From IMG/VR virus record IMGVR_UViG_3300020045_003931, positions 1 to 37,923 of that record: a stretch of DNA of 37,923 nucleotides; one strand, written 5' to 3'. Positions within the stretch are counted from its first letter, which is position 1, and every line of letters begins with the position of its first letter. The stretch is from a virus (Duplodnaviria; Caudoviricetes). This document shows, one piece after another, positions 3,290 through 17,441 of the stretch. A program made the position numbers and the translations under genes. The notes under the pieces are model-generated. The model saw only the letters and a list, made by a program, of their open reading frames with translations. It was not told where the DNA came from and did no database searches.

Positions 3290-4072
3290 TCATACCTCAC
3301 CCCTCCCGCGGTGTGAATCCCAGTCGAATGTCACCACATCCCCGCCATCCTCACGCAACCTATCATAAACCCGCTCGCCCAGGTATTGCTTGACCTCATC
3401 GAGTGGCAGGTTAGAAAGCAGCAGCGTCGGCCAGCGGTTTTCGTAGCGCTCATTCAGTAGGTCGAAAATTAAGAGCTTTTCATTCTCTGTTCCGCACTGA
3501 ATGCCGACCTCATCGAGGATTAGCAGATCGGGCCGCGTCAGGGCGGCGATGGCTTCGGTTTCGCTTTCCTCGCCGTTACGCCCCCAGGTGTTTCTGATCC
3601 GCCGGATTGCCCGCATTACCGTCGAAAAAAGAACCGTCCGCCCGTCCCTGTGCATGATTCGCAGGCCAATCCCAACCGCTAGGTGCGTTTTCCCGGTGCC
3701 AGGTTTTCCGACGAATACGGCGCTCCGCCCGGTCTTCATGGCGACATCGAAGTCTTCGGCATAGGCTTCTGCAAACGCAAGCGCCCTCCGCTGGCCTTCC
3801 GTTTCTGCCCGGTAGGATTTCAGCGTCCTATCCATGAATCGATCCGGTATTCCGGCCCATCGAAGGGTGCCGTTCCATCGCGCCAGATCGTCGGCCTTTT
3901 TTCGTTCGACTGCGGCAATCCGGTCGGCTTGATCCTTCTCCGCCGCGCAAATTGGGCACGGCGACCAGAGTCGTCCGAACACATTTCGGCTTTCAAAGTT
4001 GCCATGTTGATCGCAAACATCCTGCCGTGGGGCGGACTCCCGCTGGCTCAGAATTTCGGCAATGTCAGTCAT
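3290..4072 (-). CDS. DnaC/IstB-like AAA+ helicase loader
   Basis: Zn-finger (CDQH...CPIC), Walker A GKPGTGKT, Walker B LLILDEVG, RVYDRLRE. Confidence 0.92.
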   Translation of the reverse strand: MTDIAEILSQRESAPRQDVCDQHGNFESRNVFGRLWSPCPICAAEKDQADRIAAVERKKADDLARWNGTLRWAGIPDRFMDRTLKSYRAETEGQRRALAFAEAYAEDFDVAMKTGRSAVFVGKPGTGKTHLAVGIGLRIMHRDGRTVLFSTVMRAIRRIRNTWGRNGEESETEAIAALTRPDLLILDEVGIQCGTENEKLLIFDLLNERYENRWPTLLLSNLPLDEVKQYLGERVYDRLREDGGDVVTFDWDSHRGRGEV

Positions 4073-4908
4073 AATTTCCCCCCCTGTCCGTAGTCGATTG
4101 CGGCGAAATTTTCCAGCGCCGGAGCGCGCCTTGTGCCACCACTCGAATTCGGCGGCAACGCCGCAGCCAGCCATTCCAGCGGCTGCAACGGCTTGGCCTT
4201 CATGCACTCCCGCAGCTTTTCGATCAGCATACCGTCGCCGTGGTGCTTTCGCAATCCGCCCAGGAACGACCGCGCCTGCTTCTCGGCCGTCCCGGCATTG
4301 GTCAGCAAAGGCACCCCGTACCCGAAAATGATCTCGTCCGGATCGGTCACTTTTGACGGCTTGCCGTCCGAAGGTTTACCTTCGGAATAGTCTTTAGATG
4401 AAGATGAAGATGACGATGAAGATGACGCATGTGCACGTGAGGGTGAATGGTCGGGTGTGGCCTTTGGTGCTGCATCTATGCCCCCCTTTGGTGAATGGTC
4501 GGGTGTGGCCTTTGGCGCACCCCCATGCTCTCCTCGAAGCACGCGCTTATACTCATCCTCAACCATTCTCGACGAATACCAGACCGGCCCAGGCTGTTGC
4601 GGAATCAGCGTCACCGGAGCGCCATTTTTCCGACCTGAACGAGGAATGAAAACCAGTGGGCCGCATTCTTCATTGATGTCTGCGCCCTTTAGGACGCCCT
4701 TCGAAATAAGGCCGCGAATCTTCTGTGCAGAAGACCCGATGGCCTGTGCAATTTCCTTGACCGTCCAGCGGGCAATGCCGTATGCCTCCTGGTCGTGCAG
4801 GAGGCATATAACATCAATCCAGATGCCTTTTTCTTCGTGCGTGCAGCGCCGCAGGTTGCTATTGGCCTGCCAGTCAGATGGGTAAAACTGGAACGATGGG
4901 CGCTTCAC
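4069..4908 (-). CDS. Phage replication initiator protein (YdaU/DUF1376-like N-terminus)
   Basis: KRPSFQFYPSDW N-terminus, low-complexity linker with repeats and poly-Ser, directly upstream of the DnaC-like gene. Confidence 0.8.
   Translation of the reverse strand: MKRPSFQFYPSDWQANSNLRRCTHEEKGIWIDVICLLHDQEAYGIARWTVKEIAQAIGSSAQKIRGLISKGVLKGADINEECGPLVFIPRSGRKNGAPVTLIPQQPGPVWYSSRMVEDEYKRVLRGEHGGAPKATPDHSPKGGIDAAPKATPDHSPSRAHASSSSSSSSSSKDYSEGKPSDGKPSKVTDPDEIIFGYGVPLLTNAGTAEKQARSFLGGLRKHHGDGMLIEKLRECMKAKPLQPLEWLAAALPPNSSGGTRRAPALENFAAIDYGQGGKL
4442..4515. repeat. 26-bp direct repeat (candidate origin iterons) inside the initiator gene
   Basis: GGTGAATGGTCGGGTGTGGCCTTTGG at 4442-4467 and 4490-4515, next to GATGAA microrepeats at about 4397-4425. 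Confidence 0.6.
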
Positions 4909-4981
4909 TTCGCCCCCTCCATCGCCTTAACGTGCCGCATCACCACAAGCAGCCAGAGATGGCGGATGTTTGTACGCATAT

Positions 4982-5086
4982 AAATGACCCCTTTGGGCAG
5001 TGCATCAGATTCGGGTAACGGGCGCGGAAGGGGTCCGCGTGGGACGAATCCCACCGAAAGTGACGCACTGCCCGAAAAAGTCATTT
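4982..5086 (-). ncRNA. C4/CI-like antisense RNA candidate upstream of the replication genes
   Basis: Long closing stem with two internal hairpins. Loop sequences CCCCTT and CCCGTTAC are complementary to flanking AAGGGG and GTAACGGG on the same transcript. Confidence 0.6.
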
Positions 5087-5191
5087 ATTCCCCTTCATGG
5101 TTCCCGTTACGGAACATTCAAAATAACAGAGCCGCGCCTATAGTTCAACTATAAGAACTTCCGCTGCAATAGATTTGCACTATTATGTACA

Positions 5192-6002: not shown

Positions 6003-6014
6003 TGTCGATTTTGG

Positions 6015-6033
6015 GGTCTACTTCACGTTATGT
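6015..6033 (+). other. attI-like (array-head) recombination site of the left array
   Basis: GGTCTAC-TTCAC-G|TTATGT: core site with 5-bp spacer and no full attC hairpin. It is at the 5' end of the array in attC orientation and shares GTCTACTT with 17105-17112. Confidence 0.55.
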
Positions 6034-6272
6034 GTCAGCCGTGCATCCGGGTCCGCTCCAAGAATCGCCCGAACCCGCGCAACAAAATCCGCCTTCGTTT
6101 CTCCGTTATACGTCACCACGTCTTGCAGTGCGCGAATCGTTGCAGCCAGTGCGTCGGCGCGGCGCTTCTGTTGCCGTGCCTCAATCCGGTATGCCGTACC
6201 CTCACACTGCCGGCCGCATGTGTCGCCATCGAAAGCGGCATTGCGCTCAGTTTTTTGAAAGTTGTTCTCCAT
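6018..6272 (-). CDS. Cassette L1 hypothetical protein
   Basis: ORF fills the interval between the attI-like site and the first attC; ends THNVK inside the site. Confidence 0.65.
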   Translation of the reverse strand: MENNFQKTERNAAFDGDTCGRQCEGTAYRIEARQQKRRADALAATIRALQDVVTYNGETKADFVARVRAILGADPDARLTHNVK

Positions 6273-6276
6273 TGAC

Positions 6277-6335
6277 GGCTAACAAGTCATTCCACCGGAC
6301 GGCCTTCGGCCGCGCGGTGAATTCCGGCGTTATGC
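6277..6335 (+). repeat. attC site (59 bp)
   Basis: GGCTAAC-AAGTC-ATTCCACC...GGTGAAT-TCCGGC-GTTATGC; extra C in L''. Confidence 0.9.
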
Positions 6336-6542
6336 GTAGCCATTGAACTGCACCGGGGCATCTCCGCCGCGCGCCGCTTTGATCGCGTCAGAAAGCCCGC
6401 CTTTCGGCTTTTCCGGTGGCCTGAGCCATCCCCCGTTAATTTGGTCCGCCAATTCTTGCGCCGCCGCTTCGGTCATGCCTGGGTAGCGAAGGTGGTATTC
6501 CTCACGGCCGTTGTGAATGCACTTACAAACATGGATGCTCAT
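6330..6542 (-). CDS. Cassette L2 hypothetical protein
   Basis: MSIHVCKCIHNGREEYHLRYPG...; stop TAA is supplied by the core site. Confidence 0.7.
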   Translation of the reverse strand: MSIHVCKCIHNGREEYHLRYPGMTEAAAQELADQINGGWLRPPEKPKGGLSDAIKAARGGDAPVQFNGYA

Positions 6543-6566
6543 TTCTTTTTCTCTCAGTGGTAACCG

Positions 6567-6656
6567 GCCTAACAAGCCGGTCAACCTGACGCCCGGAAGC
6601 GGGGCGCGCGCTCTTCAACCTCTCCTGCGCGGGCGCAGGTTACCTACCTGTTAGCC
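6567..6656 (+). repeat. attC site (90 bp)
   Basis: GCCTAAC-AAGCC-GGTCAACC-TGACGCCCG...CGGGCGCA-GGTTACC-TACCT-GTTAGCC. Confidence 0.9.
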
Positions 6657-6947
6657 GGCATTGATCTTCAGCGCCGCAGCGTCTTGTCCGTCGAAATAGC
6701 CGTGGGTGTAGGCGTCCCCTTCTTCCTCCGTGGCGTAGGTGTCGGTGTCTGCCGGTAGGGCATCGGCCAGCATGTACTTCACCATCGCCCGCGCTTGCTC
6801 GGCGTGCAGTAGGTTTGTGCCGCTCGGCATCCCCCATTTCTCTCCGTATTCACGGTCAAACGCTATCCCGGCGTCAGGCGCAAAGTCCTTCGGCAGTTTC
6901 CATCCAAGGAAGCGATCTACCATCTTGTCAATCATCGTTTTGCTCAT
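6651..6947 (-). CDS. Cassette L3 conserved phage hypothetical protein
   Basis: MVDRFLGWKLPKDFAPDAGIAF...GTNLL motif; RBS GGAG; stop inside the core site. Confidence 0.75.
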   Translation of the reverse strand: MSKTMIDKMVDRFLGWKLPKDFAPDAGIAFDREYGEKWGMPSGTNLLHAEQARAMVKYMLADALPADTDTYATEEEGDAYTHGYFDGQDAAALKINAG

Positions 6948-6966
6948 GTCATTCTCCGTAGTAGGT

Positions 6967-6988
6967 GCCGGCTAACTCAGCGTTATGC
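6967..6988 (+). repeat. Collapsed/truncated attC
   Basis: GCCGGCTAAC-TCAGC-GTTATGC; the first 10 nt are the exact complement of the cassette start GTTAGCCGGC (6650-6659). Confidence 0.65.
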
Positions 6989-7411
6989 CTCATGGCCGCC
7001 GAGCATTCCGGGGATGCCGCAGCGCCCATGCAAGGAATTGCCGCGTGATTGTTGGGCGCGGTCAGGAACAGCCGTACTACCAGCGCCGACTTTTGGCGGT
7101 TTCGGCATGGGCATCCATTGCGCAGCCGCCATCTTCTGGTTGCTGTGCCAGAAAATTCCACCAATCCAAGCGCCATGAACAACCTTCCCGTCGCGAACGA
7201 ACAACACTTCTTGCGCCTCCTGCGGCAGTTCTTCGGCAACATCGCGCCATCGCGGCGCCTCTGCAAGTCGTTCAAGCAGGTCGGCGTGTATCTTTTCGTG
7301 GTAGTTGCACAGCTTTGCAAGCTCGTCGCGCTGGGCCGTTACTGCGGCGAGTTCTTTGCTGTGCCGCTCTTGTATTTCGGCGCAAATACGCTGGTGTGTT
7401 GCCGGGTTCAC
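6983..7411 (-). CDS. DUF551-like phage protein
   Basis: RWRDVAEELP...EVLF...QWMPMPKPP motif. Confidence 0.7.
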   Translation of the reverse strand: MNPATHQRICAEIQERHSKELAAVTAQRDELAKLCNYHEKIHADLLERLAEAPRWRDVAEELPQEAQEVLFVRDGKVVHGAWIGGIFWHSNQKMAAAQWMPMPKPPKVGAGSTAVPDRAQQSRGNSLHGRCGIPGMLGGHEA

Positions 7412-7587
7412 TTTGGTTCCTTTGCTCGATTTATCTTGCAGCGTACCCATTCGGCACCGCCAAGCCGCGCCAGCTTTTCCCGCTGCGCCGCCGTCACACG
7501 CAGGGAGAGCGTTACCGTGTCCTCCCCCTGTTTCACTGGCTTGCGACCCTGGCCCCTTCCGGGGCCGCCTCGCTTCGTTTTAATCAC
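7408..7587 (-). CDS. Small DNA-binding protein (RGG/GRKP motif plus ribbon-helix-helix-like), not in ORF track
   Basis: Manual translation MIKTKRGGPGRGQGRKPVKQGEDTVTLSLRVTAAQREKLARLGGAEWVR..., coupled on both sides. Confidence 0.7.
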   Translation of the reverse strand: MIKTKRGGPGRGQGRKPVKQGEDTVTLSLRVTAAQREKLARLGGAEWVRCKINRAKEPK

Positions 7588-7733
7588 AAATCCACCAAGT
7601 TTTCACGGGTCAGCTTCGCGCCCTTTCCTCCCTCAAGAGTGGCCAGCCCTTTTACTTCTTCCGCTATCGCTACGGCCCACATTGCATCGTGCTCTTGCTT
7701 TGCTTCATCGATCATTTTTTGCAGCGCGTTCAT
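7584..7733 (-). CDS. Small hypothetical protein (49 aa), not in ORF track
   Basis: MNALQKMIDEAKQEHDAMWAV...; RBS AGGAG after the promoter. Confidence 0.6.
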   Translation of the reverse strand: MNALQKMIDEAKQEHDAMWAVAIAEEVKGLATLEGGKGAKLTRENLVDL

Positions 7734-7765
7734 TTTGCTTCTCCTTGTGCGTTGTTGATGTTGTT

Positions 7766-7793
7766 ATTGTAATGCGTAATCAAACAATGTCAA
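7766..7793 (-). promoter_or_regulatory. sigma70-type promoter inside cassette L4
   Basis: TTGACA, 16 bp spacer, TACAAT on the minus strand, followed by AAGGAGAAGCAAAATG. Confidence 0.7.
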
Positions 7794-8050
7794 GTCTTTT
7801 CTATCATCACCACAACGCCCATTCCTGAGCGGTATTCATAATCATCGCTAAACCTTTCTCGCCATGCGTCAAGCTCATCACGCAATGCCGCGTTTTCATT
7901 TTGCAGTGCTGCGTTATGTTCCATCCGCATGTACTTAACAGATAAGGTCATCCCTGCGAATTGCTTGGAATAATGTAGGCAATCTGATGAAACAACCGCC
8001 TTGCAAACCGGGCAGTAATACCCAGCTTTAATGCAAACATCGGCCTTCAT
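7790..8050 (-). CDS. Hypothetical protein
   Basis: Coupled ORF with CxxC and a coiled-coil segment. Confidence 0.6.
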   Translation of the reverse strand: MKADVCIKAGYYCPVCKAVVSSDCLHYSKQFAGMTLSVKYMRMEHNAALQNENAALRDELDAWRERFSDDYEYRSGMGVVVMIEKT

Positions 8051-8493
8051 GACTTCTCCCTCAGCACCATTTCGTCAAGCCTAGTCTGGGCCGGATCTTC
8101 TTCAGGCTTCATGCACTCCCCGCATTCGTGGTCGCTGCATAAGCAATCGCCAACCTGAACCATCCGCACATCTTTAGGTAACCGCATGCCCCAAAGGCGG
8201 TTCTGTGCCAAATCAGCATCTTCATCCGTTGCTTTGCGCATACCGGTCGCCACGTCTTCCGGCAGCGGCTTGGTTACGTCACCGCTTAGAACCCGGTTCA
8301 ACGTGTGCCTTGCGCGGCTTTGCGCCCACATCACGAATTCGTAAGGCGATCTCCGCACGTCAGGGTCAAAATCCCGCCACTCTGCTGTGGCGATGTTCTC
8401 CAGTTCTTCGCAAAGTGCATCCACCTGCCGCTTGAGTTCTTCAATTTCCTCGTCTCGTGGTTTCAGCATTTCTTCAACCAGTTTCGGGTTCAT
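8047..8493 (-). CDS. Hypothetical protein
   Basis: Coupled ORF with a coiled-coil N-terminus. Confidence 0.65.
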   Translation of the reverse strand: MNPKLVEEMLKPRDEEIEELKRQVDALCEELENIATAEWRDFDPDVRRSPYEFVMWAQSRARHTLNRVLSGDVTKPLPEDVATGMRKATDEDADLAQNRLWGMRLPKDVRMVQVGDCLCSDHECGECMKPEEDPAQTRLDEMVLREKS

Positions 8494-8756
8494 ATCGCCC
8501 CCATCGGAGAGTAGTTGCGGTAAATTTTTACTTCATCCAAACAGCCTACACATGGGCCTACCGTTACCGTCGCCGCGTGTTTGCAAGATGAGCATTCCCC
8601 CGTGTCTTCCTCTCCTCCAATTAGAAATTCCATTGCCGCACATCCTTCGTGCCATAGGTCAAGATCCACGACCATCACCGCGCCGTCGTCGCCTTCCATT
8701 TCCTCACTGTTGTGGAATAGCTTGGCCAGCGAGTTAAGTGCTTCGTCTTTGTCCAT
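8490..8756 (-). CDS. Hypothetical protein
   Basis: RBS AAAGGA; Cys-rich C-terminus. Confidence 0.65.
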   Translation of the reverse strand: MDKDEALNSLAKLFHNSEEMEGDDGAVMVVDLDLWHEGCAAMEFLIGGEEDTGECSSCKHAATVTVGPCVGCLDEVKIYRNYSPMGAI

Positions 8757-8781
8757 TTCCGTTCCTTTCGTTATCGTTAAT

Positions 8782-8849
8782 GCATAACACGTCGCTCAAC
8801 ACGGACGCAGGCGATAAAGCCGCCTGCGCCGGTTAGCTAGGCGTTGGGC
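8782..8849 (+). repeat. attC site (68 bp)
   Basis: GCATAAC-ACGTC-GCTCAAC...GGACGCAGGCG-loop-CGCCTGCGCC-GGTTAGC-TAGGC-GTTGGGC. Confidence 0.9.
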
Positions 8850-9181
8850 GTCTTGTCCGCGAAGTCTTCACGCGGATAGAACCAGTCGTCCTTGATGATG
8901 TGCCCAATCGCTTCAATTCCGCCGCGGTCACTGCGCACCCGGATAGTTTTTCCTGTGAGCTTATCCCAATCGGTCACTCCGGCAACCTCCATCACGCGCC
9001 AAATGAAGTGCCCGGCAACGCTCTTTAGTTCGTGGTATGCGAAGCTCTCCGGAAGGTACAGCGTGTAGCCGCCGAAACCTTGGCCGCTGCCGCCGTAGTC
9101 AAGCATCAACCACGCACTCAACAGTCCATGGTCATCGCTGGTGATGCGGGCGCTTTCAATCACTGCGTTTTTTGTTTCCAT
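8837..9181 (-). CDS. Conserved phage hypothetical protein
   Basis: [33 protein letters not shown] motif; ends TPNA inside the attC. Confidence 0.8.
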
Positions 9182-9204
9182 TTTCTACGCTAGCAGGTCT
9201 TGTT

Positions 9205-9855
9205 TTATGGTGTGTTGATGTAGTCATATGCCGTAGGCTCCGGTCTTGTTATTGCCATAAGTTTCGCAATAGTTGATTCAATCTCGCCGACGAAAACCTT
9301 CACCGAGTTTTCGTATTCAATTACAAGGTCATCATTGCGCAGCAGTCGAACGATAAACAGCCGCATATCCTCTGGCATTCTCGGGTCGTAGCTGGCAAAG
9401 TCGCACCACTTTCGGCCAGTGCATGCCATCTGCCAAATCATTTGTGGAACGTAATCAGGCGGCGGCTTTCCGGCTACCAGATAGTTGATGTGCGTTTTCG
9501 TATTCGGACACTTTATCTCCACCAATCCATCATCATCAATCAGTCCATCAGGGGATGCGCCAGACCATTTAATGGTCGGGTGTTTGATAAATCCAACCTC
9601 TTCAACCATACAATTTGTTTTCAGTTCGTACGCAGCGCGTGCCATTGGCTCGTTCAGCGTTCCCCATTCCATGGCCGCATTGGTGAACCCGTTTTCGATC
9701 ACCCCGGTGAGGCGTTGCGCTACCAGTTCAGCGCGGTAGTTCGCTCGCGTAGCCGCTTCTCCGCTCTTGATCGTCGCCAGAACATCCCTCATCCTGGATG
9801 CGGTAACGTGTCCGAGCCGGTCAATCTTCCATGCGTCTGTTCCCTGGTCGTTCAT
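9205..9855 (-). CDS. YqaJ/lambda-exonuclease-family recombinase exonuclease
   Basis: QGTDAW..RLGHVTAS, WGTLNEP, GASPDGL, VEIKCP, Q..WQM. Confidence 0.92.
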   Translation of the reverse strand: MNDQGTDAWKIDRLGHVTASRMRDVLATIKSGEAATRANYRAELVAQRLTGVIENGFTNAAMEWGTLNEPMARAAYELKTNCMVEEVGFIKHPTIKWSGASPDGLIDDDGLVEIKCPNTKTHINYLVAGKPPPDYVPQMIWQMACTGRKWCDFASYDPRMPEDMRLFIVRLLRNDDLVIEYENSVKVFVGEIESTIAKLMAITRPEPTAYDYINTP

Positions 9856-10478
9856 TTCTTCGCCACCAGGATGGCTTTTAGATCGGCCGTTTTCTTTGAG
9901 ATAATCCGGAACGCAGCAGGATCGGGCCATTCCATCGCGGCCTTTTTCGCGGCCAGGTAGGCAGACTGTAGCGCTTCAATCGTCTCGGCAGATTCCAGCG
10001 CAACGATATGTGTATCGAGTGGGAATTCGCCCTTTTCCGTATGCCTGGATTCCTCATCTTCGCCGGTTTCAATTTCGAACAACTTGAGCACCGCGTACTT
10101 TTTTGCGTAGCTGATCGCCTTCCCCGGGGCCTTGTCCTGATTATCCATCGCGTGAGCTTCCATCCGAATAATCAGATCGTCCTTGGGGTCGTCCGCATTC
10201 ACAAACCGGAAATCATAGGTCGCCTCGTATCGAATCATGTTCGACGGAGCGCCGTCTTTTCCAAGCGGGATGGCAATGTTTGACGAAATCAGGGACGGGA
10301 TGCAGATAATTCCCTGCTCTACGAGGTGATGCCTGATAACGCCTGTTACTTCATCGTGCGTGACAGCCTTATACGATCCGCCGCCCGTGGATACCGCCTT
10401 ATTCTTCTGTATGTAATCGACCTGCTTGCGTACCTCGTTGATGCGCTGAAACAGGTTCTTTGCCTTTGATTCGGACAT
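9852..10478 (-). CDS. ERF-family single-strand annealing protein
   Basis: DNQDKAPGKAISYAKKYAVLKLFEIETGED motif; paired with the exonuclease. Confidence 0.85.
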   Translation of the reverse strand: MSESKAKNLFQRINEVRKQVDYIQKNKAVSTGGGSYKAVTHDEVTGVIRHHLVEQGIICIPSLISSNIAIPLGKDGAPSNMIRYEATYDFRFVNADDPKDDLIIRMEAHAMDNQDKAPGKAISYAKKYAVLKLFEIETGEDEESRHTEKGEFPLDTHIVALESAETIEALQSAYLAAKKAAMEWPDPAAFRIISKKTADLKAILVAKK

Positions 10479-10735
10479 TGCCCCCCCTTGACTATTGATT
10501 GTGGTCATCTCAAAGCCTCCCCCTTCCCATTACGGGAAAAGAGAGGGTAGGTCATCCCCGATAAACGGGAGTCGCATGCTTGTTTCCAAGTCCCCGGACG
10601 TGCGACTAAAGCCAGTCCCGCCGATTGTGAGAGGTAGTTGCCTCTGTGCCTTGCGGCCTACGGCGTACCCTTTTATTCAGCGCTGCCGGGTATGGGCACT
10701 TGATCCGCTCGGAGTGCGGACGGATGCCAAAGAAA

Positions 10736-10841
10736 AACGCCCAAATATGCTTTGCAGGGCGGGCCTTTGGCGAAGGCAGTCGGCGCTTGCTAGAGGACAG
10801 CATTCCAACCACTTCCGCCCTGCAAAATCTACTTGGGCGTT
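10736..10841 (-). ncRNA. Second C4/CI-like antisense RNA candidate upstream of the recombination genes
   Basis: Closing stem AACGCCCAA...TTTGCAGGGCGG / CCGCCCTGCAAA...TTGGGCGTT. Internal TCCTCTAG and GCCAAA are complementary to flanking CTAGAGGA and TTTGGC. Confidence 0.6.
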
Positions 10842-11089
10842 CATGTTGCTTCCTCTAGTTTCGCGCCGGTTGCCAAACCGACGGAATAAGTTTGCCACTC
10901 TAATACTCCTAAGTCAAGAAAAAATGATTACAGCGCAATCGCCGACGATGTCAGAAGGAAAATCACGATAGAAGCAATCGATACGAATACCGCAACGTCG
11001 CCGGGAACATTGGTACTGTCGCACCACGGGATATTGCGCAGGTAATTGGGCTGGATTCGGTGAAAGTGGCGGTCGTAGTGGCTCATGGA

Positions 11090-11398
11090 TCAGTCCTCCA
11101 GATGACGTTGAATGCGATTGACCAGCGATTGCAGATCAACCTGTGCGTGTAGCGCCTCCGTTAGGGACGGATGTGTGCTCAGCACTGCGGTAATCCTCGG
11201 CGCGAGCAGGACGACCTGCTTCATCAAAACTTCCATCTGCTCGTAGTCTTCGACAATGATCGATGGGCGGCGCTGGCGGTACTCGTCGCAGTTGTCGGCC
11301 ATGTATGCCTCGCGCTCATGGGCCCTGCGATTCCGCGCGGCCAACAGTTCCGGCTCGTCTCCGTGCATGCCTTCGTACATGGCTCTCTCCTTGTTCAT
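11090..11398 (-). CDS. Hypothetical protein
   Basis: First sizeable ORF of the leftward operon. Confidence 0.6.
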   Translation of the reverse strand: MNKERAMYEGMHGDEPELLAARNRRAHEREAYMADNCDEYRQRRPSIIVEDYEQMEVLMKQVVLLAPRITAVLSTHPSLTEALHAQVDLQSLVNRIQRHLED

Positions 11399-11622
11399 CC
11401 CGGGCTATTCATCCTGCCGCCCGGGGAAGGCAGGACGGCTTACCCGTCAGCATCCCGGTGGCTCGGGCGGCGCAATCACCAGAGAAGCGGTCTGGCGAAT
11501 TTGGTGGGTTACTTTGTTTCCCTGTCGTTTCCCTGGTGAGCCCATGCCTTGACATGCGCAGGTACGGGGGCGTCTAGGGGCACGTTTCGCCCGTTGATCG
11601 GTACTGCAAATTCCTACTGATC

Positions 11623-11736
11623 TGGTGATGCTTTAGTAAGCGGAGGCCAAATAAAACGCCCGGTGGCCAACCGATCCCTCTTGTATCCGGGCGGTTCGGT
11701 GCTGCCGAACCCCTCTAATTTGGTGATGCTTTAGTA
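11623..11736. repeat. 16-bp direct repeat flanking hairpins in the leftward leader
   Basis: TGGTGATGCTTTAGTA at 11623-11638 and 11721-11736. Confidence 0.8.
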
Positions 11737-11843
11737 CGCCTACCGGGTGATTCAGCTAGCGCGGCGTGTCGGCGGTGCCATTGACGCATTGATAACTGAC
11801 GGTTCCCATCGGCTTGCGGCATTCACTTGTTGCTGCAAGTGAC

Positions 11844-11907
11844 CAAACTATAAACAAAATATTTTGCTAATGCAATAGACAAAACAAAATATTTTGTTTA
11901 TAGTTTG
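11844..11907. promoter_or_regulatory. Back-to-back divergent early promoters with palindromic operators
   Basis: Perfect 23-bp inverted repeat (11844-11866 / 11885-11907). Right promoter TAGACA-17-TATAGT, left promoter TTGCAT-17-TATAGT, with CAAAATATTTTG in each spacer. Confidence 0.85.
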
Positions 11908-11928
11908 CCCATCGAACAAGGGGGCACC

Positions 11929-12123
11929 ATGAACATAGAACAACTGGTTAAACGATACGGCGACGACAACGTAGCCATTGGGCGGGAGATTTGCTACACG
12001 CCGCAATCAATCCGCAACTGGCGCAGGAAAGGCAAAATCCCGATGGTTGCGCAAAGAACCATTGAGGCGATTACTGGCGGGGCGCTGAAGGCTGACAAGA
12101 AACCTAAGAGGGTGCGGGCATGA
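11929..12123 (+). CDS. Cro-like HTH regulator
   Basis: AIGREICYTPQSIRNWRRKGKIP...IEAITGGALKAD; first gene after the rightward promoter. Confidence 0.8.
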   Translation: MNIEQLVKRYGDDNVAIGREICYTPQSIRNWRRKGKIPMVAQRTIEAITGGALKADKKPKRVRA

Positions 12124-12206
12124 CCTGGCTAGCGAAGGTCTGGATTGCCTGTGTATTTGGTTGCGCGGACGCTCCCTCTCGACTGACGGGTTAAAGGGCA
12201 ATAGCT

Positions 12207-12812
12207 ATGGCTGATGAATACATGATTCGCACGGTGACGGACTTCGCCGGGATACCAGAGGACAAACTGCTCGAATGCCTGAGTGACTTTATGCAGTTCC
12301 TGGCGATGGTTCGCCACTCGGCGAAGTTTGACCAAGAAATGCAAATGGCCTTTGAACTGCCGGAAGGCTCGCTGAATCTCGACACTGACGTTTTCCATTG
12401 GATAGACGACGGACGCCGCGAATGCTCGGCGCTGGATTTTGTAGCGAAGGAAACCGGCGAGACGGTGGGGCGGATGGACTTGCCCTCCAACGCACGAGTT
12501 CAGGCCGACGCCGAGAGCTTGGCCGGCGACCGCGCTGCGGAAGACGCGAGAGACATTGCGGAGGCCCATGAGCGGAAAACCATCACGGCAGTCGAACGTG
12601 TTCGAGAACTTGACGCCGGGATCGAACTGCTGCGCGAGGCCGTCATCAGTCGGCGCGAATGCCACAAGGCGTACAGCGAAATTACAGGCACCATCGCGGG
12701 ACGAGTCCCGACGCGAGAGGAACGAGATAAAGAGGTAGCGCTTCGTTCGGCGATTGGGATGGCTGAACGCGCGGTCATGGATGCGGCGGAATATCTGACG
12801 CCCAACGACTGA
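12207..12812 (+). CDS. Cassette hypothetical protein (probable fusion of two cassettes)
   Basis: Internal half-attC at 12482-12510 is read as LPSNARVQAD; ends TPND inside the attC. Confidence 0.7.
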   Translation: MADEYMIRTVTDFAGIPEDKLLECLSDFMQFLAMVRHSAKFDQEMQMAFELPEGSLNLDTDVFHWIDDGRRECSALDFVAKETGETVGRMDLPSNARVQADAESLAGDRAAEDARDIAEAHERKTITAVERVRELDAGIELLREAVISRRECHKAYSEITGTIAGRVPTREERDKEVALRSAIGMAERAVMDAAEYLTPND

Positions 12813-12866
12813 ATTGAGGCGACTGCGCGGCTTCTTGCGCAGTTCGCCTCGAATGATGGGTTCGGC
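12800..12866 (-). repeat. attC site (67 bp)
   Basis: Minus strand: GCCGAAC-CCATC-ATTCGAGG...CCTCAAT-TCAGTC-GTTGGGC. Confidence 0.9.
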
Positions 12867-12892
12867 GGCAACCTGTAAGCATTACTTACCAG

Positions 12893-13210
12893 TTGGATGA
12901 ATTGAAAATGCCAATTGAACCACACGAAGAAACAGAAGCAATCGACAGGCTGTTCTTGGAGTTGTCGCAATTCACAAAGGCAAAGACCAAGCGCGATTTG
13001 CAGCTTGACGCGCTAATCATGGCCGTGGAGCGCAAGTTCCCCGGAGAGACGCGCTTTGAAACGGCTCTGCGGTACATACGGGAAGCAGAGTCTACAAGCT
13101 CTGTGGCAACGGCAGCAGTGACGCCCAACGTTGAAGTTCAGGGGCGTGCCGGCATTATCGGCACGTCCGCTGGAACGACGGGTTCGACCACACGGGAGCC
13201 AACAGAGTGA
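12893..13210 (+). CDS. Cassette hypothetical protein
   Basis: AIDRLFLELSQFTKAKT...FPGETRFETALRYI; reads through the whole attC 13123-13188. Confidence 0.7.
   Translation: MDELKMPIEPHEETEAIDRLFLELSQFTKAKTKRDLQLDALIMAVERKFPGETRFETALRYIREAESTSSVATAAVTPNVEVQGRAGIIGTSAGTTGSTTREPTE
13123..13188 (-). repeat. attC site (66 bp)
   Basis: Minus strand: GTCGAAC-CCGTC-GTTCCAGC...CCTGAAC-TTCAAC-GTTGGGC. Confidence 0.9.
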
Positions 13211-13716
13211 GCCTGAGCGGACACCAAAGCGCGGCGATGAAAAACGACGAGTGGCTGACGCCGCCCGAGATCCTGCGCACCCTCGGGGCGTTCGATCTTG
13301 ACCCGTGTGCGCCAATAGTCAGGCCGTGGGAGACGGCGGCCCAGCACTACACGGCGCAAGACGACGGGCTGGCCCTGCCTTGGTTTGGGCGCGTTTGGTG
13401 CAACCCGCCATTCGGGCGTGAGGCAGTGAAGTGGCTGCGGAAGATGCGCGACCACGGAAACGGGGTGGCCTTGATCCCGGCGCGCACCGAGACGGCGATG
13501 TTTTACGAAACAGTGTGGGGAGCGGCAGACGGCGTGCTGTTCCTCAAAGGGCGCCCGCACTTCCACTACGTTTGCGGACGGCGGGCGGATTTCAACAGCG
13601 GCGCACCCATTGCCTTGGTGGCCTACGGAAGCGACAACCTGGAAGCACTCAGGCATAGCGGCCTCGGGTTCGTGGTAGTGGGGTCGAACGCCGGAATTCA
13701 CCGCGCGGCCGAATGA
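13207..13716 (+). CDS. Phage DNA N6-adenine methyltransferase (phage Dam family) cassette
   Basis: DEWLTPP, FDLDPCA, catalytic VWCNPPF, LIPARTET. Confidence 0.9.
   Translation: MSLSGHQSAAMKNDEWLTPPEILRTLGAFDLDPCAPIVRPWETAAQHYTAQDDGLALPWFGRVWCNPPFGREAVKWLRKMRDHGNGVALIPARTETAMFYETVWGAADGVLFLKGRPHFHYVCGRRADFNSGAPIALVAYGSDNLEALRHSGLGFVVVGSNAGIHRAAE
13683..13713 (-). repeat. Half attC (L'-R' arm only)
   Basis: 27 nt identical (inverted) to 6305-6331; the other arm is absent. Confidence 0.8.
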
Positions 13717-13796
13717 ACGAAGGCTACCTGCTCGACGTGAGCGACCGGATGTACTGGGACAACGTGTGCGCGAGCCTGAGCCAAAGTGATTGAAGG

Positions 13797-13860
13797 GGCT
13801 AACGCATGAAATCAGGGGCAGGCCGCTTTTGGCCTGTCCCGCTGGATTGACGGGTTAGGG
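13797..13860 (-). repeat. attC site (64 bp)
   Basis: Plus strand: GGCTAAC-GCATGA-AATCAGG-GGCAGGCC...GGCCTGTCCC-GCTGGATT-GACGG-GTTAGGG. Confidence 0.88.
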
Positions 13861-13868
13861 GGAGACAA

Positions 13869-14123
13869 ATGAAAGAGATTGTTGGCGCGAAAATCGGGAC
13901 ACTGATTACTAACAACCGGAGAACCATTTCCGAGGCGGTGGAGCGAAACGCGGTCACGGAATTCCTTGACCGCAAACACATGCAGTTTATGGCCGCGATG
14001 GACTTGGGGCGAAATTGGGAACTGATGGCGAGCGGGCCGACTTTGTTTTGCATAGATGACAACGGGAAACCGCAGCCCCATAACGTAGAGCTAACCGGCG
14101 CTGCGCGCCACGGACAGGAGTAG
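13869..14123 (+). CDS. Cassette hypothetical protein
   Basis: RBS GGGGGAG overlaps the core site; ends HNVELTGAARHGQE inside the next attC. Confidence 0.7.
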   Translation: MKEIVGAKIGTLITNNRRTISEAVERNAVTEFLDRKHMQFMAAMDLGRNWELMASGPTLFCIDDNGKPQPHNVELTGAARHGQE

Positions 14124-14200
14124 ATGCGATGACGACCGAGACACCACAAACGACAGCGACTCCCGCTGGCGCAGCGTCCGAGTTGAGCGCAGGGTTAGAT
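14078..14200 (-). repeat. attC site (123 bp) with stop codon, RBS and start codon in its loop
   Basis: Plus strand: CCATAAC-GTAGA-GCTAACC-GGCGCTGCGC...GCGCAGCGTCCG-AGTTGAGC-GCAGG-GTTAGAT. Confidence 0.88.
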
Positions 14201-14428
14201 GGTCTTGCGAAATCGGCTGGATTCAAGCGGACGAAAATGCACAAATCTCTTCGACGGTTTGCTGAGCTAGTTGCAGCCGCAGAACGCGAGGCGTGCGCCA
14301 AGGTTTGCGATAAGCGGGTGATGTACCCGGATGGATGCGATGTTGCAAAAACGTGCGCCATTGAGATACGTGAGCGCTCTAACGCAAAGGTAACCGGCGC
14401 TCAACAGCGCGCACCGGAAGCCGAGTAA
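14129..14428 (+). CDS. Cassette hypothetical protein
   Basis: LRRFAELVAAAEREACAKVC...CAIEIRER motif common in phages; starts and ends inside attC loops. Confidence 0.75.
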   Translation: MTTETPQTTATPAGAASELSAGLDGLAKSAGFKRTKMHKSLRRFAELVAAAEREACAKVCDKRVMYPDGCDVAKTCAIEIRERSNAKVTGAQQRAPEAE

Positions 14429-14479
14429 ACCACTGCGGACGCGCGCTGTTGAGCGTCCGCGTTCACCGCCGGGTTAGCC
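14377..14479 (-). repeat. attC site (103 bp)
   Basis: Plus strand: CTCTAAC...GGTAACC-GGCGCTCAACAGCGCG...CGCGCTGTTGAGCGTCC-GCGTTCACC-GCCGG-GTTAGCC. Confidence 0.9.
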
Positions 14480-14499
14480 GGCAGATCGGAGAGGGCGCA

Positions 14500-14850
14500 A
14501 TGGACAGGGACGACGACCTGCACAATTACCTCAGAACGCAGTTCAGCGACTTCGAATGGGCAAAGGCCTTCATGTGGCGATGGGTGAATGAGATGGACCA
14601 AGAACTGCCGGGATTTGGGTTGATTAGCTCGCGGTCTTTGGCTGCGCATTGCAGCGCCGTACTTGAGAACGCGCAGGTCCAGATGATTGGCTCGACCACG
14701 AACTATATGGCGAGCAAATACGGGAGCGAACTGTACTGGGCCGCGTGGGGCGACCCGCCGGCTAACGTAGAGTTCAGCGGGACTCCGGCGGCATCATCGC
14801 CGGAGGCTCCGCTGGAACGCCGGGTTGGGCCTAGCGCACAAGAGGAATGA
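14500..14850 (+). CDS. Cassette hypothetical protein
   Basis: RBS GGAGAGGG; reads through attC 14760-14830. Confidence 0.7.
   Translation: MDRDDDLHNYLRTQFSDFEWAKAFMWRWVNEMDQELPGFGLISSRSLAAHCSAVLENAQVQMIGSTTNYMASKYGSELYWAAWGDPPANVEFSGTPAASSPEAPLERRVGPSAQEE
14760..14830 (-). repeat. attC site (71 bp)
   Basis: Plus strand: GGCTAAC-GTAGA-GTTCAGC-GGGACTCCGGCG...CGCCGGAGGCTCC-GCTGGAAC-GCCGG-GTTGGGC. Confidence 0.9.
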
Positions 14851-14853
14851 GAA

Positions 14854-15111
14854 ATGGACAAAGAAATAGCGGCGTGGCGTGAGCGGTTCCCTCGGTACGA
14901 ATACCGACCGCAGGACGAATGTGTGGCGCTGAAGTTTGAATGCGCATACGGATGCCACTGCGACCTTGACCCCGGCATGACGCCTGACAAGTGCGTGCTT
15001 GACGAGGGGCGCTCATTTGATTGCACGAAGGCTCAGCAACTACTCCGCGATGGGAAGGGGCGCAACGATTGCGACGATTGGAAGCCAATTGTCGAGAGGC
15101 CCAACGTGTGA
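14854..15111 (+). CDS. Cassette Cys-rich hypothetical protein
   Basis: YGCHCDL...CVLD...C...CDDW; ends RPNV. Confidence 0.7.
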   Translation: MDKEIAAWRERFPRYEYRPQDECVALKFECAYGCHCDLDPGMTPDKCVLDEGRSFDCTKAQQLLRDGKGRNDCDDWKPIVERPNV

Positions 15112-15156
15112 CTTCAGGGGCGCCGGAACGGCGTCCCTTGCAAGGATGGGTTCGGC
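15099..15156 (-). repeat. attC site (58 bp)
   Basis: Plus strand: GCCCAAC-GTGTGA-CTTCAGG-GGCGCC...GGCGTCC-CTTGCAAG-GATGG-GTTCGGC. Confidence 0.82.
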
Positions 15157-15192
15157 GTCTTGCCGGAGCCGACTTTTGAAGGGAACGAGGAC

Positions 15193-15423
15193 ATGAAACT
15201 GTTTGTGTGGTGCGATCCGTATCAAGTGACTTACGGCTCCGCGATGGTGTTTGCTGTCGCGGCGACCGAGACTGCGGCCAAGAAGCAAGCTGCAAAAGGA
15301 CTGGCGTACAAGTACGGGAAATATAGGCAAGACGGAAGCATGGCTGATTTGGCTGGCAGACTCGGGAAGCCTGACCGCGTTGTCGACCTGCCGTGCGCCG
15401 AGTGGCATGAGTGGTCGGAATGA
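15193..15423 (+). CDS. Cassette hypothetical protein
   Basis: RBS GAGG; MKLFVW...FAVAATETAAKK. Confidence 0.7.
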   Translation: MKLFVWCDPYQVTYGSAMVFAVAATETAAKKQAAKGLAYKYGKYRQDGSMADLAGRLGKPDRVVDLPCAEWHEWSE

Positions 15424-15427
15424 AGAC

Positions 15428-15497
15428 GCCGAACGCCGAGTGAAGGGGCGATGCGCGGCCTTATCGCGCAGCGTCCCGCTTGCATGCCGGGTTATGT
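15428..15497 (-). repeat. attC site (70 bp)
   Basis: Plus strand: GCCGAAC...GTGAAGG-GGCGATGCGCG...CGCGCAGCGTCC-CGCTTGCAT-GCCGG-GTTATGT. Confidence 0.82.
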
Positions 15498-15513
15498 TTC
15501 ACGAAGGAAGAGA

Positions 15514-16056
15514 ATGGACAACTTGCAAGAAAAACCAAGCAACGCCACTTTTGCCGGCAGGCGGGTTTTAGACCCGTGCTGCGGCAGCCGGATGATGTGG
15601 TTTGACCGGAAACACCCTGACGCCGTGTTCGGTGACAAGCGCACCGAGCAGCACACGCTTTGCGATGGACGGACGCTGCGCATTGAGCCTGACATGCAGA
15701 TGGATTTCACGGCCCTGCCGTTTGACGACGGCGCGTTCCGGCTTGTGGTGTTCGATCCTCCGCACTTGCACACCGCCGGCCCGAAAAGTTGGATGGCAGC
15801 GAAGTACGGAAAGCTTACCGGAGACTGGAGCGAAGACTTGCGCAAGGGGTTTGCCGAATGTTTCCGCGTGCTGGCCAGCGACGGTGTTCTGATTTTCAAA
15901 TGGAACGAAACACAGGTGAAGATTCGTGAAGTGCTGGCGCTGACGCCCGAGCAACCGCTATTCGGACACCCGACCGGACGCAAAGGGCTGACCCACTGGT
16001 ACGTGTTCATGAAACATAACGCAGAAATAACCGGCCGCGCCAGCGGTCCGGGTTGA
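15514..16056 (+). CDS. SAM-dependent (probable DNA amino-) methyltransferase cassette
   Basis: VLDPCCGSRM SAM-binding motif, VVFDPPH catalytic-type motif, GVLIFKWNE. Confidence 0.85.
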   Translation: MDNLQEKPSNATFAGRRVLDPCCGSRMMWFDRKHPDAVFGDKRTEQHTLCDGRTLRIEPDMQMDFTALPFDDGAFRLVVFDPPHLHTAGPKSWMAAKYGKLTGDWSEDLRKGFAECFRVLASDGVLIFKWNETQVKIREVLALTPEQPLFGHPTGRKGLTHWYVFMKHNAEITGRASGPG

Positions 16057-16070
16057 TTGACGGGTTAGGA
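16014..16070 (-). repeat. attC site (57 bp)
   Basis: Plus strand: ACATAAC-GCAGA-AATAACC-GGCCGC...GCGGTCCG-GGTTGATT-GACGG-GTTAGGA. Confidence 0.9.
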
Positions 16071-16076
16071 AACGAC

Positions 16077-16283
16077 ATGAGCGTAAGAGTAAAGACACTG
16101 GACAAAGCTGTGGCAGAAGCCAAGCGGTTTTTGGAAGCGGCAGACGTTGTGAAACGGTGCGCTGGAAGCGCCGAATACACCAAAGGCGATCCTTGGTACT
16201 GCGGCGGCCAGCATTGTGCAGCAGCGAAGCGGGCAAGTATGGATTTGTCGAAGGCGCTGGCCGATGTGCGGCGCGGTTCCTAA
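16077..16283 (+). CDS. Cassette hypothetical protein
   Basis: AVAEAKRFL...AAAKRASMDLSKALADVRR; stop TAA inside the core site. Confidence 0.75.
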   Translation: MSVRVKTLDKAVAEAKRFLEAADVVKRCAGSAEYTKGDPWYCGGQHCAAAKRASMDLSKALADVRRGS

Positions 16284-16348
16284 CGACCCGAATTCAGGGG
16301 CCGCACGCGGCCCTATCGCGGGCGGTCCCCTGGAATGAGTTGTTAGGG
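16278..16348 (-). repeat. attC site (71 bp)
   Basis: Plus strand: TCCTAAC...ATTCAGG-GGCCGC...GCGGTCC-CCTGGAAT-GAGTT-GTTAGGG. Confidence 0.9.
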
Positions 16349-16356
16349 GCCAACGC

Positions 16357-16869
16357 ATGGCGACCACCAAGACAAGTTGCCCACAGTGCGGCGCTGCGTT
16401 TGAAGCGGAAACCGGGAGGATGAACCGGGCGCTGAAGATCGGAGCACCACTGTACTGCGGCCGCGCATGCGCAGGACTGGCGCGACGACTGACAAGCCCG
16501 CCAACGGAAGCAGAGCGGAAAGAGGCAAAGCGACTTTATGACGCGCGGCGACGAGTTGAGAAGGAGGAAGAAATCAAGGCCAAGAAGCGCGACTACTTCA
16601 AGCGCACCTATGACCCAGCCAAGGCTGCGGCTGAACGCAAGGAAAGGATGCCAAGGCACGTTGAATACTGCCGGAGGCCGGAATACAAGGCTTGGAAGCG
16701 CGAGTACGACAGGCGCCACTTGGCCGAGAAGAAGTTTGGCGAGTTCGCCGAAGTAGCACTGTTGTTGCAGGACATAGAGCGGGAGGTTGAGCAGCGCGCT
16801 ACGCGCTACGAGATATACCGCACCAATGGAACACTCAATAAAGCGCAAACGCGCAGGAGATCATTATGA
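16357..16869 (+). CDS. Cassette hypothetical protein, Zn-finger-like and basic
   Basis: CPQC...YCGRAC; very Arg/Lys-rich. Confidence 0.75.
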   Translation: MATTKTSCPQCGAAFEAETGRMNRALKIGAPLYCGRACAGLARRLTSPPTEAERKEAKRLYDARRRVEKEEEIKAKKRDYFKRTYDPAKAAAERKERMPRHVEYCRRPEYKAWKREYDRRHLAEKKFGEFAEVALLLQDIEREVEQRATRYEIYRTNGTLNKAQTRRRSL

Positions 16870-17084
16870 CCACGATTACCAAGGAACTGAACGCCACCAA
16901 CCTGAAAAACGCCCTTTGGGAGACGCTCCAAGACATCAAGGCCGGCACGGTTCAACCCGGCCAAGGTGACGCCATCGCATCCCAGGCGCGGGAGATTCTG
17001 CGCACGGTGAAGGTGCAGCTTCAGGTGACGAACCAGTCGAAACGCAGCGTGCCGGCTGACGTGATCCAGTTCGCGGAGAAGTGA
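16866..17084 (+). CDS. Second gene of the two-gene cassette, hypothetical
   Basis: ATGA-coupled to the previous gene. Confidence 0.75.
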   Translation: MTTITKELNATNLKNALWETLQDIKAGTVQPGQGDAIASQAREILRTVKVQLQVTNQSKRSVPADVIQFAEK

Positions 17085-17094
17085 AGAACATGGC

Positions 17095-17113
17095 CCCTAA
17101 CACTAAGTAGACG
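17095..17113 (-). other. attI-like (array-head) site of the right array
   Basis: Minus strand: CGTCTAC-TTAGT-G|TTAGGG; no R'' box upstream; same GTCTACTT as the left terminus. Confidence 0.55.
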
Positions 17114-17132
17114 TACCGTGCAAGGTAGGCAA

Positions 17133-17441
17133 ATGTACCGACTGACTAAAAAAGCCGAAGTCCAGCGGACGACGTGGGCGCAGATTCGCCGGGCCAGAGA
17201 CGCCACGCGGATGGATGGGCCGGCGCCTGACTATCCCCAGCCGCTCCCAGAACTTCGCCGGCGGATCGTGATCGAGGATTTCGATTTCGAACGCCGCGTC
17301 CACGTCCTTGAATTTTTCCGTACAAATAGGGTTGACTGTTACAAAGTCGTCGCCGACGGGAAAGTATGGAAAGAGCGTATCGGCTGGTCGCAAGCACTGG
17401 CCGGCCTAAGAAAATCATTGCCGCGAGTCGGCGCAATTTGA
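17133..17441 (+). CDS. Hypothetical phage protein
   Basis: PELRRRIVIEDFD...RVDCYKV.ADG...GWS. Confidence 0.7.
   Translation: MYRLTKKAEVQRTTWAQIRRARDATRMDGPAPDYPQPLPELRRRIVIEDFDFERRVHVLEFFRTNRVDCYKVVADGKVWKERIGWSQALAGLRKSLPRVGAI

Follow-up and report, generated by a model that had tools for sequence, protein, structure and literature searches.

Integron integrases (IntI) cut the folded bottom strand of attC sites between A and C of the AAC triplet (Nivina et al. 2016, PMC5027507). Clusters of attC sites lacking integron-integrases (CALINs) were defined by Cury et al. 2016 (PMC4889954), who call the creation of cassettes unknown, and Qi, Rajabal, Ghaly, Tetu and Gillings 2023 (PMC9892861) described 17 CALINs in phages, where five of the six sites tested recombined with IntI1. 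Whereas attC sites can serve as substrates for several IntIs, recognition of an attI site is restricted to the cognate integrase (PMC2095811). All four papers are cited from the portions of their text that were available. Here we describe two attC arrays in the virus contig IMGVR_UViG_3300020045_003931, the whole of which (37,923 bp) was analysed and is called the window below. An earlier note, made from the sequence alone, had given attC arrays as described mainly from bacterial chromosomes and plasmids and had missed the phage clusters already published. The two early arms of this phage appear to carry integron arrays with reversed genes, each ending in an attI-type dock and neither accompanied by intI; the arrays are likely rearranged by an IntI acting in trans, most likely the chromosomal enzyme of the host.

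The earlier note had listed 13 complete attC sites of 57–123 bp. A covariance model accepts all 13 and recovers them at those lengths, so that the list stands as far as complete sites are concerned; their antisense fit, four broken sites and two docks were passed over in it. The 60 attC sites on which the model was built, all chosen by the grammar scanner of this analysis, are 2 of R388 and 58 located at or close to intI in bacterial genomes. Run over the whole window at E ≤ 1, it returned the 13 sites (41.8–63.4 bits, E ≤ 4e-9) and, as a fourteenth match, an echo of 13 bits on the opposite strand. The grammar scan itself (R''-5 nt-L'' with an extra base at position 4 ... L'-5–7 nt-R') gave 16 matches in the window, namely the 13 sites, one nested and two loose, against a mean of 1.4 and a maximum of 5 in 40 shuffles of the 11-kb region. 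All 13 sites have the R''/R' and L''/L' boxes, the 5-nt and 5–7-nt spacers and the AAC/GTT core. Position 4 of L'' on the top strand is C in 11 sites and G in 2, and the bottom strand, which carries the extrahelical G and is here the coding strand, folds at the lower energy in 11 of 13. The sites form same-strand groups of 3 and 10, less than 4 kb apart and with no intI nearby, as in a CALIN. The elements of the two arrays are as follows, with attC strands given for the attC top strand.

Left array, genes on the − strand:
6013..6033, + strand: left attI-type dock, top strand GGGGTCTAC-TTCAC-G/TTATGT, crossover (slash) between 6027 and 6028
6028..6329, − strand: cassette L5, body of attC 6277-6335 and open reading frame (ORF) 6018-6272 (84 amino acids, no family), ends matching 1/4
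6277-6335, + strand: attC, 59 bp, 41.8 bits
6330..6650, − strand: cassette L4, attC body and ORF 6330-6542 (70 amino acids; 81% at the amino acid level to locus L030)
6567-6656, + strand: attC, 90 bp, 43.6 bits
6651..6982, − strand: cassette L3, collapsed site and ORF 6651-6947 (98 amino acids)
6970..6988, − strand: collapsed attC lacking the hairpin body, its two R boxes separated by 5 nt and each matching its partner 4/4
6983..8843, − strand: cassette L2, attC body and six ORFs (8490-8756, 8047-8493, 7790-8050, 7584-7733, 7408-7587 and 6983-7411, all −), ends 4/4
8782-8849, + strand: attC, 68 bp, 58.5 bits
8837..9181, − strand: ORF ending in an R box, with no upstream attC (phrog_30930), a probable truncated distal cassette

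Right array, genes on the + strand:
12150..12196, − strand: partial attC, gene-sense 3' half only
12485..12530, − strand: partial attC, gene-sense 5' half only; ORF 12207-12812 reads through it
12800-12866, − strand: attC, 67 bp, 63.4 bits; cassette R1 12806-13128, ORF 12908-13210
13123-13188, − strand: attC, 66 bp, 61.7 bits; cassette R2 13129-13688, ends 4/4
13207-13716, + strand: Dam-family methyltransferase of R2 (PF05869)
13683..13713, − strand: partial attC, 27 nt identical to 6305-6331 (inverted repeat), the identity beginning at AAC
13797-13860, − strand: attC, 64 bp, 51.1 bits; cassette R3 13803-14083
14078-14200, − strand: attC, 123 bp, 50.9 bits; cassette R4 14084-14382, ORF 14129-14428 beginning in the hairpin loop
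14377-14479, − strand: attC, 103 bp, 44.0 bits; cassette R5 14383-14765
14760-14830, − strand: attC, 71 bp, 59.3 bits; cassette R6 14766-15104
15099-15156, − strand: attC, 58 bp, 45.6 bits; cassette R7 15105-15433
15428-15497, − strand: attC, 70 bp, 45.9 bits; cassette R8 15434-16019
15514-16056, + strand: phrog_954 DNA methyltransferase of R8 (PHROG)
16014-16070, − strand: attC, 57 bp, 43.4 bits; cassette R9 16020-16283
16278-16348, − strand: attC, 71 bp, 53.3 bits; cassette R10 16284-17100
16357-16869 and 16866-17084, + strand: gene pair of R10
17095..17130, − strand: right attI-type dock, top strand ACGTCTAC-TTAGT-G/TTAGGG, crossover between 17101 and 17100

In a BLAST search of the region against 301 Rhodocyclaceae-family genomes, 87 genomes were matched, mostly in attC bodies and by up to 61 nt at 100%; site 8782-8849 shares 61 identical nt with the Rhodocyclaceae-family locus L249, with different flanks. 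Applied to other phages, the betaproteobacterial attC model gave one match of 21.7 bits in PH101 and none in P12002L or Rctr41k. An Rfam search gave no match. Some long attC loops contain a ribosome-binding site (RBS) and start codon, so that the gene starts within its own hairpin (14078-14200; L030 5917-6013; L007 11594-11687).

The genes of both arrays run against their sites. All 13 attC sites (three left, ten right) match the bacterial model only antisense to the genes, whereas in the controls R388 and TJE1 the matches fall on the gene strand. Gene direction is given by family, the Dam-family and phrog_954 methyltransferases lying on + and phrog_30930 on −, by the switch in GC skew from one arm to the other and by the start signals: of the 13 sites, 7 have an RBS and start codon directly after them on the gene strand, and none on the opposite strand. 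In related phage loci, the same RBS test called 63 of 89 gaps inverted and 1 canonical, with 25 uncalled; on chromosomal arrays it left 35 of 43 gaps uncalled. Chromosomal arrays of the Rhodocyclaceae family are mostly canonical by a longest-ORF test (45 gaps versus 7 inverted). Since IntI cuts the bottom strand at AA/C and the bottom strand is here the coding strand, a unit should comprise the hairpin first and then the gene. On the coding strand each unit indeed spans AA/C to AA/C, with the hairpin followed by RBS and gene; the hairpin goes with the downstream gene, unlike a canonical cassette, in which a gene is followed by its own same-strand attC. Nor do the genes read away from a cassette promoter (Pc) upstream of attI: they are encoded on the bottom strand and are read in the direction of the dock. 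The G/TT crossover proposed in the earlier note agrees with the breakpoints described below, but its position on the non-coding strand, the genes being inverted, had gone unnoticed.

The ends of the units bear marks of cassette movement. Across the gene, the R boxes match 4/4 in 9 of 14 units, 3/4 in four and 1/4 in one, versus 4/4 within a site in 0 of 13; on permutation the mean was 1.3, and none of 100,000 trials reached 9. The unit ends are thus complementary as expected of cassettes, and the dock-proximal units of the right arm, R5–R10, all match 4/4, with the broken sites distal. Among 110 site-bearing loci, 42 of the 53 alignment ends that touch sites (a count that includes reciprocal and near-duplicate pairs) fall at AA/C, the hairpin moving with the downstream gene, as the earlier note had anticipated for related phages. 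L007 and L343 have a 430-bp unit in common that is 100% identical; one copy is docked at attI, and the second precedes another attC. Locus L030 shares window positions 7411-8845 at ~90%, from site 8782-8849 on, and the homology begins at AA/C. Identical hairpin bodies precede different downstream genes in L249, L184 and L252. The support for recombination of these attC sites by IntI is comparative and comes from the AA/C breakpoints.

A 14-nt motif, AAAGTCGGCGCTGG, at 7080-7095 (−) recurs near cassette ends in either orientation (L123, L109, L196, L199, L170 and others). With at most one mismatch it has 38 matches in 1.96 Mb of phage loci and 11 in 0.24 Mb of genome integron loci, six of them in L123; it is possibly a trace of cassette making, or a second site.

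Both arrays terminate in attI-type docks. The left dock lies at the promoter-distal end of its array, directly upstream of ninB, and the right dock, which has a second conserved box at 17113-17130, lies upstream of core ORF 17133-17441. The window has two copies of the pattern GTCKAC-N5-GTT, at 6016-6029 and 17099-17112, which are the two array heads in attC polarity; 0.31 copies are expected, and two copies, position ignored, occurred in 3 of 100 shuffles. Matrices were derived from 17 chromosomal and 14 viral-IntI attI cores, located by R-box match alone, with L123/L131 and the class 1 copies L025/L132/L133/L161 left out of training. The left dock ranks first among 1096 GTT sites by the chromosomal matrix, at 13.3 bits versus −1.3 by the viral-IntI matrix. 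An attI at the array head in attC polarity is therefore clear on the left; on the right it is clear by position and ambiguous by matrix score. Of the 72 distinct metagenomic contexts of the exact left-dock 17-mer (10 duplicates having been removed), six have a divergent intI at a distance of 131–335 nt, and a canonical first cassette is present in the two of those six where one was seen. In a further 15, the fetched DNA contains attC without intI, and in the remaining 51 it contains neither.

The docks recur in related phages. The left 16-mer was found at 16 viral loci on 14 contigs (L315, from an unpublished genome, was excluded from this and the dock-motif locus counts), of which nine have inverted attC upstream, seven of these matching 4/4; the left dock was absent from all 11 NinB relatives. 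The right dock precedes the same core gene in 4 of 4 relatives from a protein search and in 3 of 8 pattern matches (2 distinct), and in the six distinct relatives a different upstream sequence is joined to it each time at AA/C. The right-dock 24-mer had no metagenome match, so that neither a near-identical variant nor an excision junction of this phage was seen. On one 37-kb contig (L334, L335, L349), three inverted arrays each terminate in a copy of the left-dock motif, and within the left array of the window the collapsed attC at 6970-6988 resembles a simple attI-like site.

The earlier note was right that the window contains no tyrosine recombinase: PF00589 and TIGR02249 (IntI) have no match at E ≤ 1 anywhere in the 37,923-bp record, to which CheckV assigns 100% completeness. 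An intI in cis, as in a complete integron, is accordingly absent from the record, which leaves the terL–portal gap unsequenced. Array-bearing relatives with no PF00589 match include the 44-kb G001, which has terminal repeats, and others with estimated completeness of 93% and 95%.

Some phages do encode IntI. With the L123 IntI as query, 62 viral loci were found to encode relatives; in many of them, an early operon closes with an inverted array followed by attI and then by intI. In a quick tree, whose viral rows were retrieved with a phage-type query and are biased accordingly, 33 viral IntIs and the genome-borne copy of L123 form one group (Shimodaira–Hasegawa-like approximate likelihood ratio test, 94). 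One member, tested against TIGR02249, scored 460 bits (cut-off 265) and belongs to a temperate phage with repressor, tail, endolysin and a separate integrase; 4 of 5 such IntI-bearing phage records are 99–100% complete. At L182–L230 (IMG/VR) and L123 5305-6333, phage IntIs follow inverted arrays with their own attI, and often a separate phage integrase comes next. These loci are complete phage integrons that have apparently gone undescribed. A reading of L123 as an inverted chromosomal integron of Rhodocyclaceae was rejected, and the locus was left out of the chromosomal set, as its IntI groups with the viral ones, its attI is of viral type and an excisionase-like gene follows.

Both window docks differ from the attI of the phage group, which reads GTCG[GT][AT]GAA-TTTAA-GTT on the top strand and has an inverted repeat close by; the window does not show the arrangement of this attI type followed by intI. 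Conversely, the chromosomal-type dock motif was found upstream of viral intI at 0 of 47 loci, with a pattern derived from the same data. Cassettes are nonetheless common to IntI-bearing loci and PF00589-free records (L204/L010, 91%; L208/L007, 93%), and a homologue of window cassette L3 (60% at the amino acid level) lies directly before attI and intI in phage locus L215. Because attI is cognate-specific and attC is shared, the simplest reading is that docking is performed by a host chromosomal IntI and that excision is open to either enzyme. The proposal of the earlier note that a host IntI serves the arrays in trans is thus favoured by the chromosomal type of the left dock and weakened in so far as the phage-encoded group could also act on attC.

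Several observations weigh against an inverted array served by a host enzyme. The longest-ORF strand test calls three gaps inverted, four canonical and two tied in the window, and 27 inverted versus 23 canonical in integrase-less viral loci, although this test misleads in these GC-rich phages and fails on the window itself. Unit L5, next to the left dock, is the one that matches just 1/4. Eleven of the 53 breakpoints lie away from AA/C (seven at the far R box, four inside hairpin bodies), and the block common to the window and L030 ends with no attC. The right dock scores low and nearly equally with the two matrices (4.4 bits chromosomal, 2.7 bits viral IntI). Two of the six intI genes beside the 17-mer are nearer the phage-type than the chromosomal query (69 versus 64% and 68 versus 66%, from partial alignments), and the dock motif is not specific to the family, occurring at 7 of 25 intI loci at the order level and 7 of 25 at the class level. 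A search for the host gave no assignment, the best match to the major capsid protein being 38%, in 1 of the 301 Rhodocyclaceae-family genomes (the G010 family is one genome). Finally, the record ends fall inside terL and inside portal, leaving an estimated ~2 kb unsequenced; this gap probably holds only the missing parts of both genes, since terL and portal are 38 bp apart in the P22-like phage MW202573.

The arrays might instead be served by the phage-encoded IntI of a co-infecting or resident temperate phage, or have been left by an ancestor that lost intI. The 62 viral loci, many with inverted arrays directly upstream of intI, the 33-member group with its TIGR02249-passing member and nearly complete records, the shared cassettes and the L3 homologue at L215 speak for such a source, as does the recombination of attC by several IntIs (PMC2095811). 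We consider it rather unlikely, as the attI of this group is unlike either dock and, in the pattern drawn from the same data, the chromosomal-type motif precedes none of the 47 viral intI genes.

Two further explanations dispense with an integrase. In one, the sites are inert relics, and gene movement is the work of the phage's own homologous recombination system, Erf/YqaJ, for which the similar hairpins serve as short homology linkers. Both genes do lie between the arrays, four sites are broken, some breakpoints fall inside hairpins (4 of 53) or at the far R box (7), and the same hairpin bodies stand before different genes in L249, L184 and L252. Homologous recombination, however, would not cluster ends at AA/C (42 of 53), would not select R-box matches across the gene over those within the site (9/14 versus 0/13) and would not keep attI-type docks with changing upstream neighbours, which makes this explanation improbable. 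It is less probable still that the hairpins act mainly on the transcript, where they would attenuate or direct processing between early genes, and owe their resemblance to attC to descent alone. The slightly better folding of the coding strand (11 of 13) and the overlap of some hairpins with stop or start codons would suit such a role; the Rfam search, on the other hand, had no match, the breakpoints lie at AA/C, and the extrahelical bases, the unpaired spacer and the R-box match across the gene are features of DNA recombination with no expected role in RNA.

The cargo consists largely of phage genes without a named function. Of the 22 array ORFs, only two, both methyltransferases, have a named function. 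The Dam-family methylase of the earlier note is confirmed by the PF05869 match of ORF 13207-13716, but its DUF551-like cargo has no Pfam match at E ≤ 0.01 and only a weak one to PHROG 924. Its suggestion that the arrays sample many donors like a mobile integron finds no backing, as no array ORF has a homologue in the chromosomal integron loci examined. The R10 gene pair is present in nine other phage loci, none of which has an attC model match, and the alignment with the closest locus spans start codon to stop codon and nothing beyond. For the R8 methyltransferase, attC matches were found in 4 of the best 80 loci (of at least 600), all antisense. Since the homologues of R10 and R8 mostly lie in loci without attC, these ordinary phage genes occur in two forms, as cassettes and without a cassette frame.

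Integrons have been reported to store anti-phage systems, and the host IntI is likely SOS-induced on infection. If the arrays follow the known chemistry of integrons, the coding strand would fold during replication and be bound by IntI; recombination of attC with attC would excise circles of a hairpin plus a gene, and recombination of attC with attI would insert incoming circles at the dock. New genes would then enter the promoter-distal end of each early operon, facing the phage promoter, and older, decaying units would end up promoter-proximal. This order of decay is suggested because R5–R10 are intact near the right dock and the broken sites are distal, with L5 as the exception. Host cassettes inserted at a phage dock would be silent, as they would lie antisense to the promoter, and the same would hold for phage cassettes in a host integron; this reciprocal silence could keep a phage-only pool on a shared enzyme. 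More tentatively, phages may be a workshop for new cassettes, in which phage genes cut at start and stop codons are framed by reversed host-type attC; the resulting phage-only pool would have two enzyme supplies, host IntI through copied attI docks and phage IntI with its own attI, and be mutually silent with the defence-rich pool of the host.

If the proposed reading is correct, phages routinely edit their early genes with a bacterial integron enzyme through a copied bacterial attI, and the switch in polarity bars phage and host cassettes from expression in each other's arrays. The paired cassette and bare forms of R10 and R8 make the origin of cassettes, which the available text of PMC4889954 calls unknown, directly testable, and the key steps can be tested in E. 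coli by standard attC × attI assays.

By PHROG matches the window is a P22-like podophage with the gene order terL/terS, NinG, DnaC-like loader, NinB, left early arm, YqaJ exonuclease and Erf, cro-like gene, right early arm, single-stranded DNA-binding protein, lysis, tailspike, ejection proteins, head genes and portal. The elements between the arrays are:

9205..10508, − strand: YqaJ exonuclease and Erf annealase, phage homologous recombination (PHROG, Pfam)
11400..12123: divergent control region, with the cro-like gene at 11929-12123 on the + strand (PF14549)

Both arrays are likely transcribed from this control region, at which the GC skew switches sign. A search for sigma70-like promoters gave one site, 11876-11904, no more than expected by chance. 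The region contains a pair of 44-nt direct repeats and a perfect inverted repeat of 23 nt (11598-11739 and 11844-11907), and no repressor gene was recognised opposite cro. Two 29-nt direct repeats (97%), 48 nt apart at 4442-4518 in ORF 4069-4908 beside the DnaC-like loader, are probable iterons of a replication origin. Long intergenic hairpins at 10732-10845 and 4980-5112 match neither the attC model nor Rfam. A GIY-YIG/HNH-type homing endonuclease at 32310-32921 (−), among the head genes, lies in the lowest-GC kilobase (48.5%).

In terms of known systems, the window resembles the phage CALINs of PMC9892861 in having attC clusters without intI in a phage and methyltransferase cargo. In the available text of that paper, the CALINs outside Vibrio and Shewanella prophages have 2–4 sites, whereas the window has 13 in two mirror arrays, and attI is given only for the Shewanella prophage M16-3 and class 1, whereas the window has two docks. 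MW202573, a P22-like CALIN of the same study (L181, 2069-3738), has 5 of 5 model matches antisense to its annotated genes and thus the inverted layout of the window, while TJE1 is canonical; the MW202573 cluster also carries the methyltransferase family of R8. The available text makes no remark on gene inversion ('opposite' and 'in trans' do not occur in it), and the inversion is unpublished as far as found, although the Dryad annotation file of Qi et al., which lies outside our coverage, shows strands and may already display it. The literature covered, which excludes subscription papers and bioRxiv supplements, contained no account of inverted phage cassettes, of attI docks in phages lacking intI or of the phage IntI group.

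As in classical integrons (PMC5027507, available text), the window has the attC grammar, the bottom-strand extrahelical G, the AAC crossover and the R-box match across the cassette, and its attI core is of the widespread proteobacterial chromosomal type. Unlike them, it has no intI in cis, its genes lie on the bottom strand, its dock is promoter-distal and expression would come from phage early promoters instead of Pc. Like bacterial CALINs (PMC4889954, available text), it has attC sites clustered at distances below 4 kb on a single strand, and no intI lies next to them, but each cluster keeps an attI-type dock and the cargo consists of phage genes. As the evidence from relatives indicates that the docks are in use, the locus is better described as an integron lacking intI than as an off-target attC cluster. 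With the phage-encoded IntI group it shares inverted cassettes, the same attC family, common cassettes and a dock at the end of an early operon, whereas that group has intI directly after the dock and a different attI. On this sequence comparison, the arrays of the window would represent an inverted, intI-less integron with attI-type docks in a phage; the inversion, the docks and the phage IntI group appear to be the new elements.

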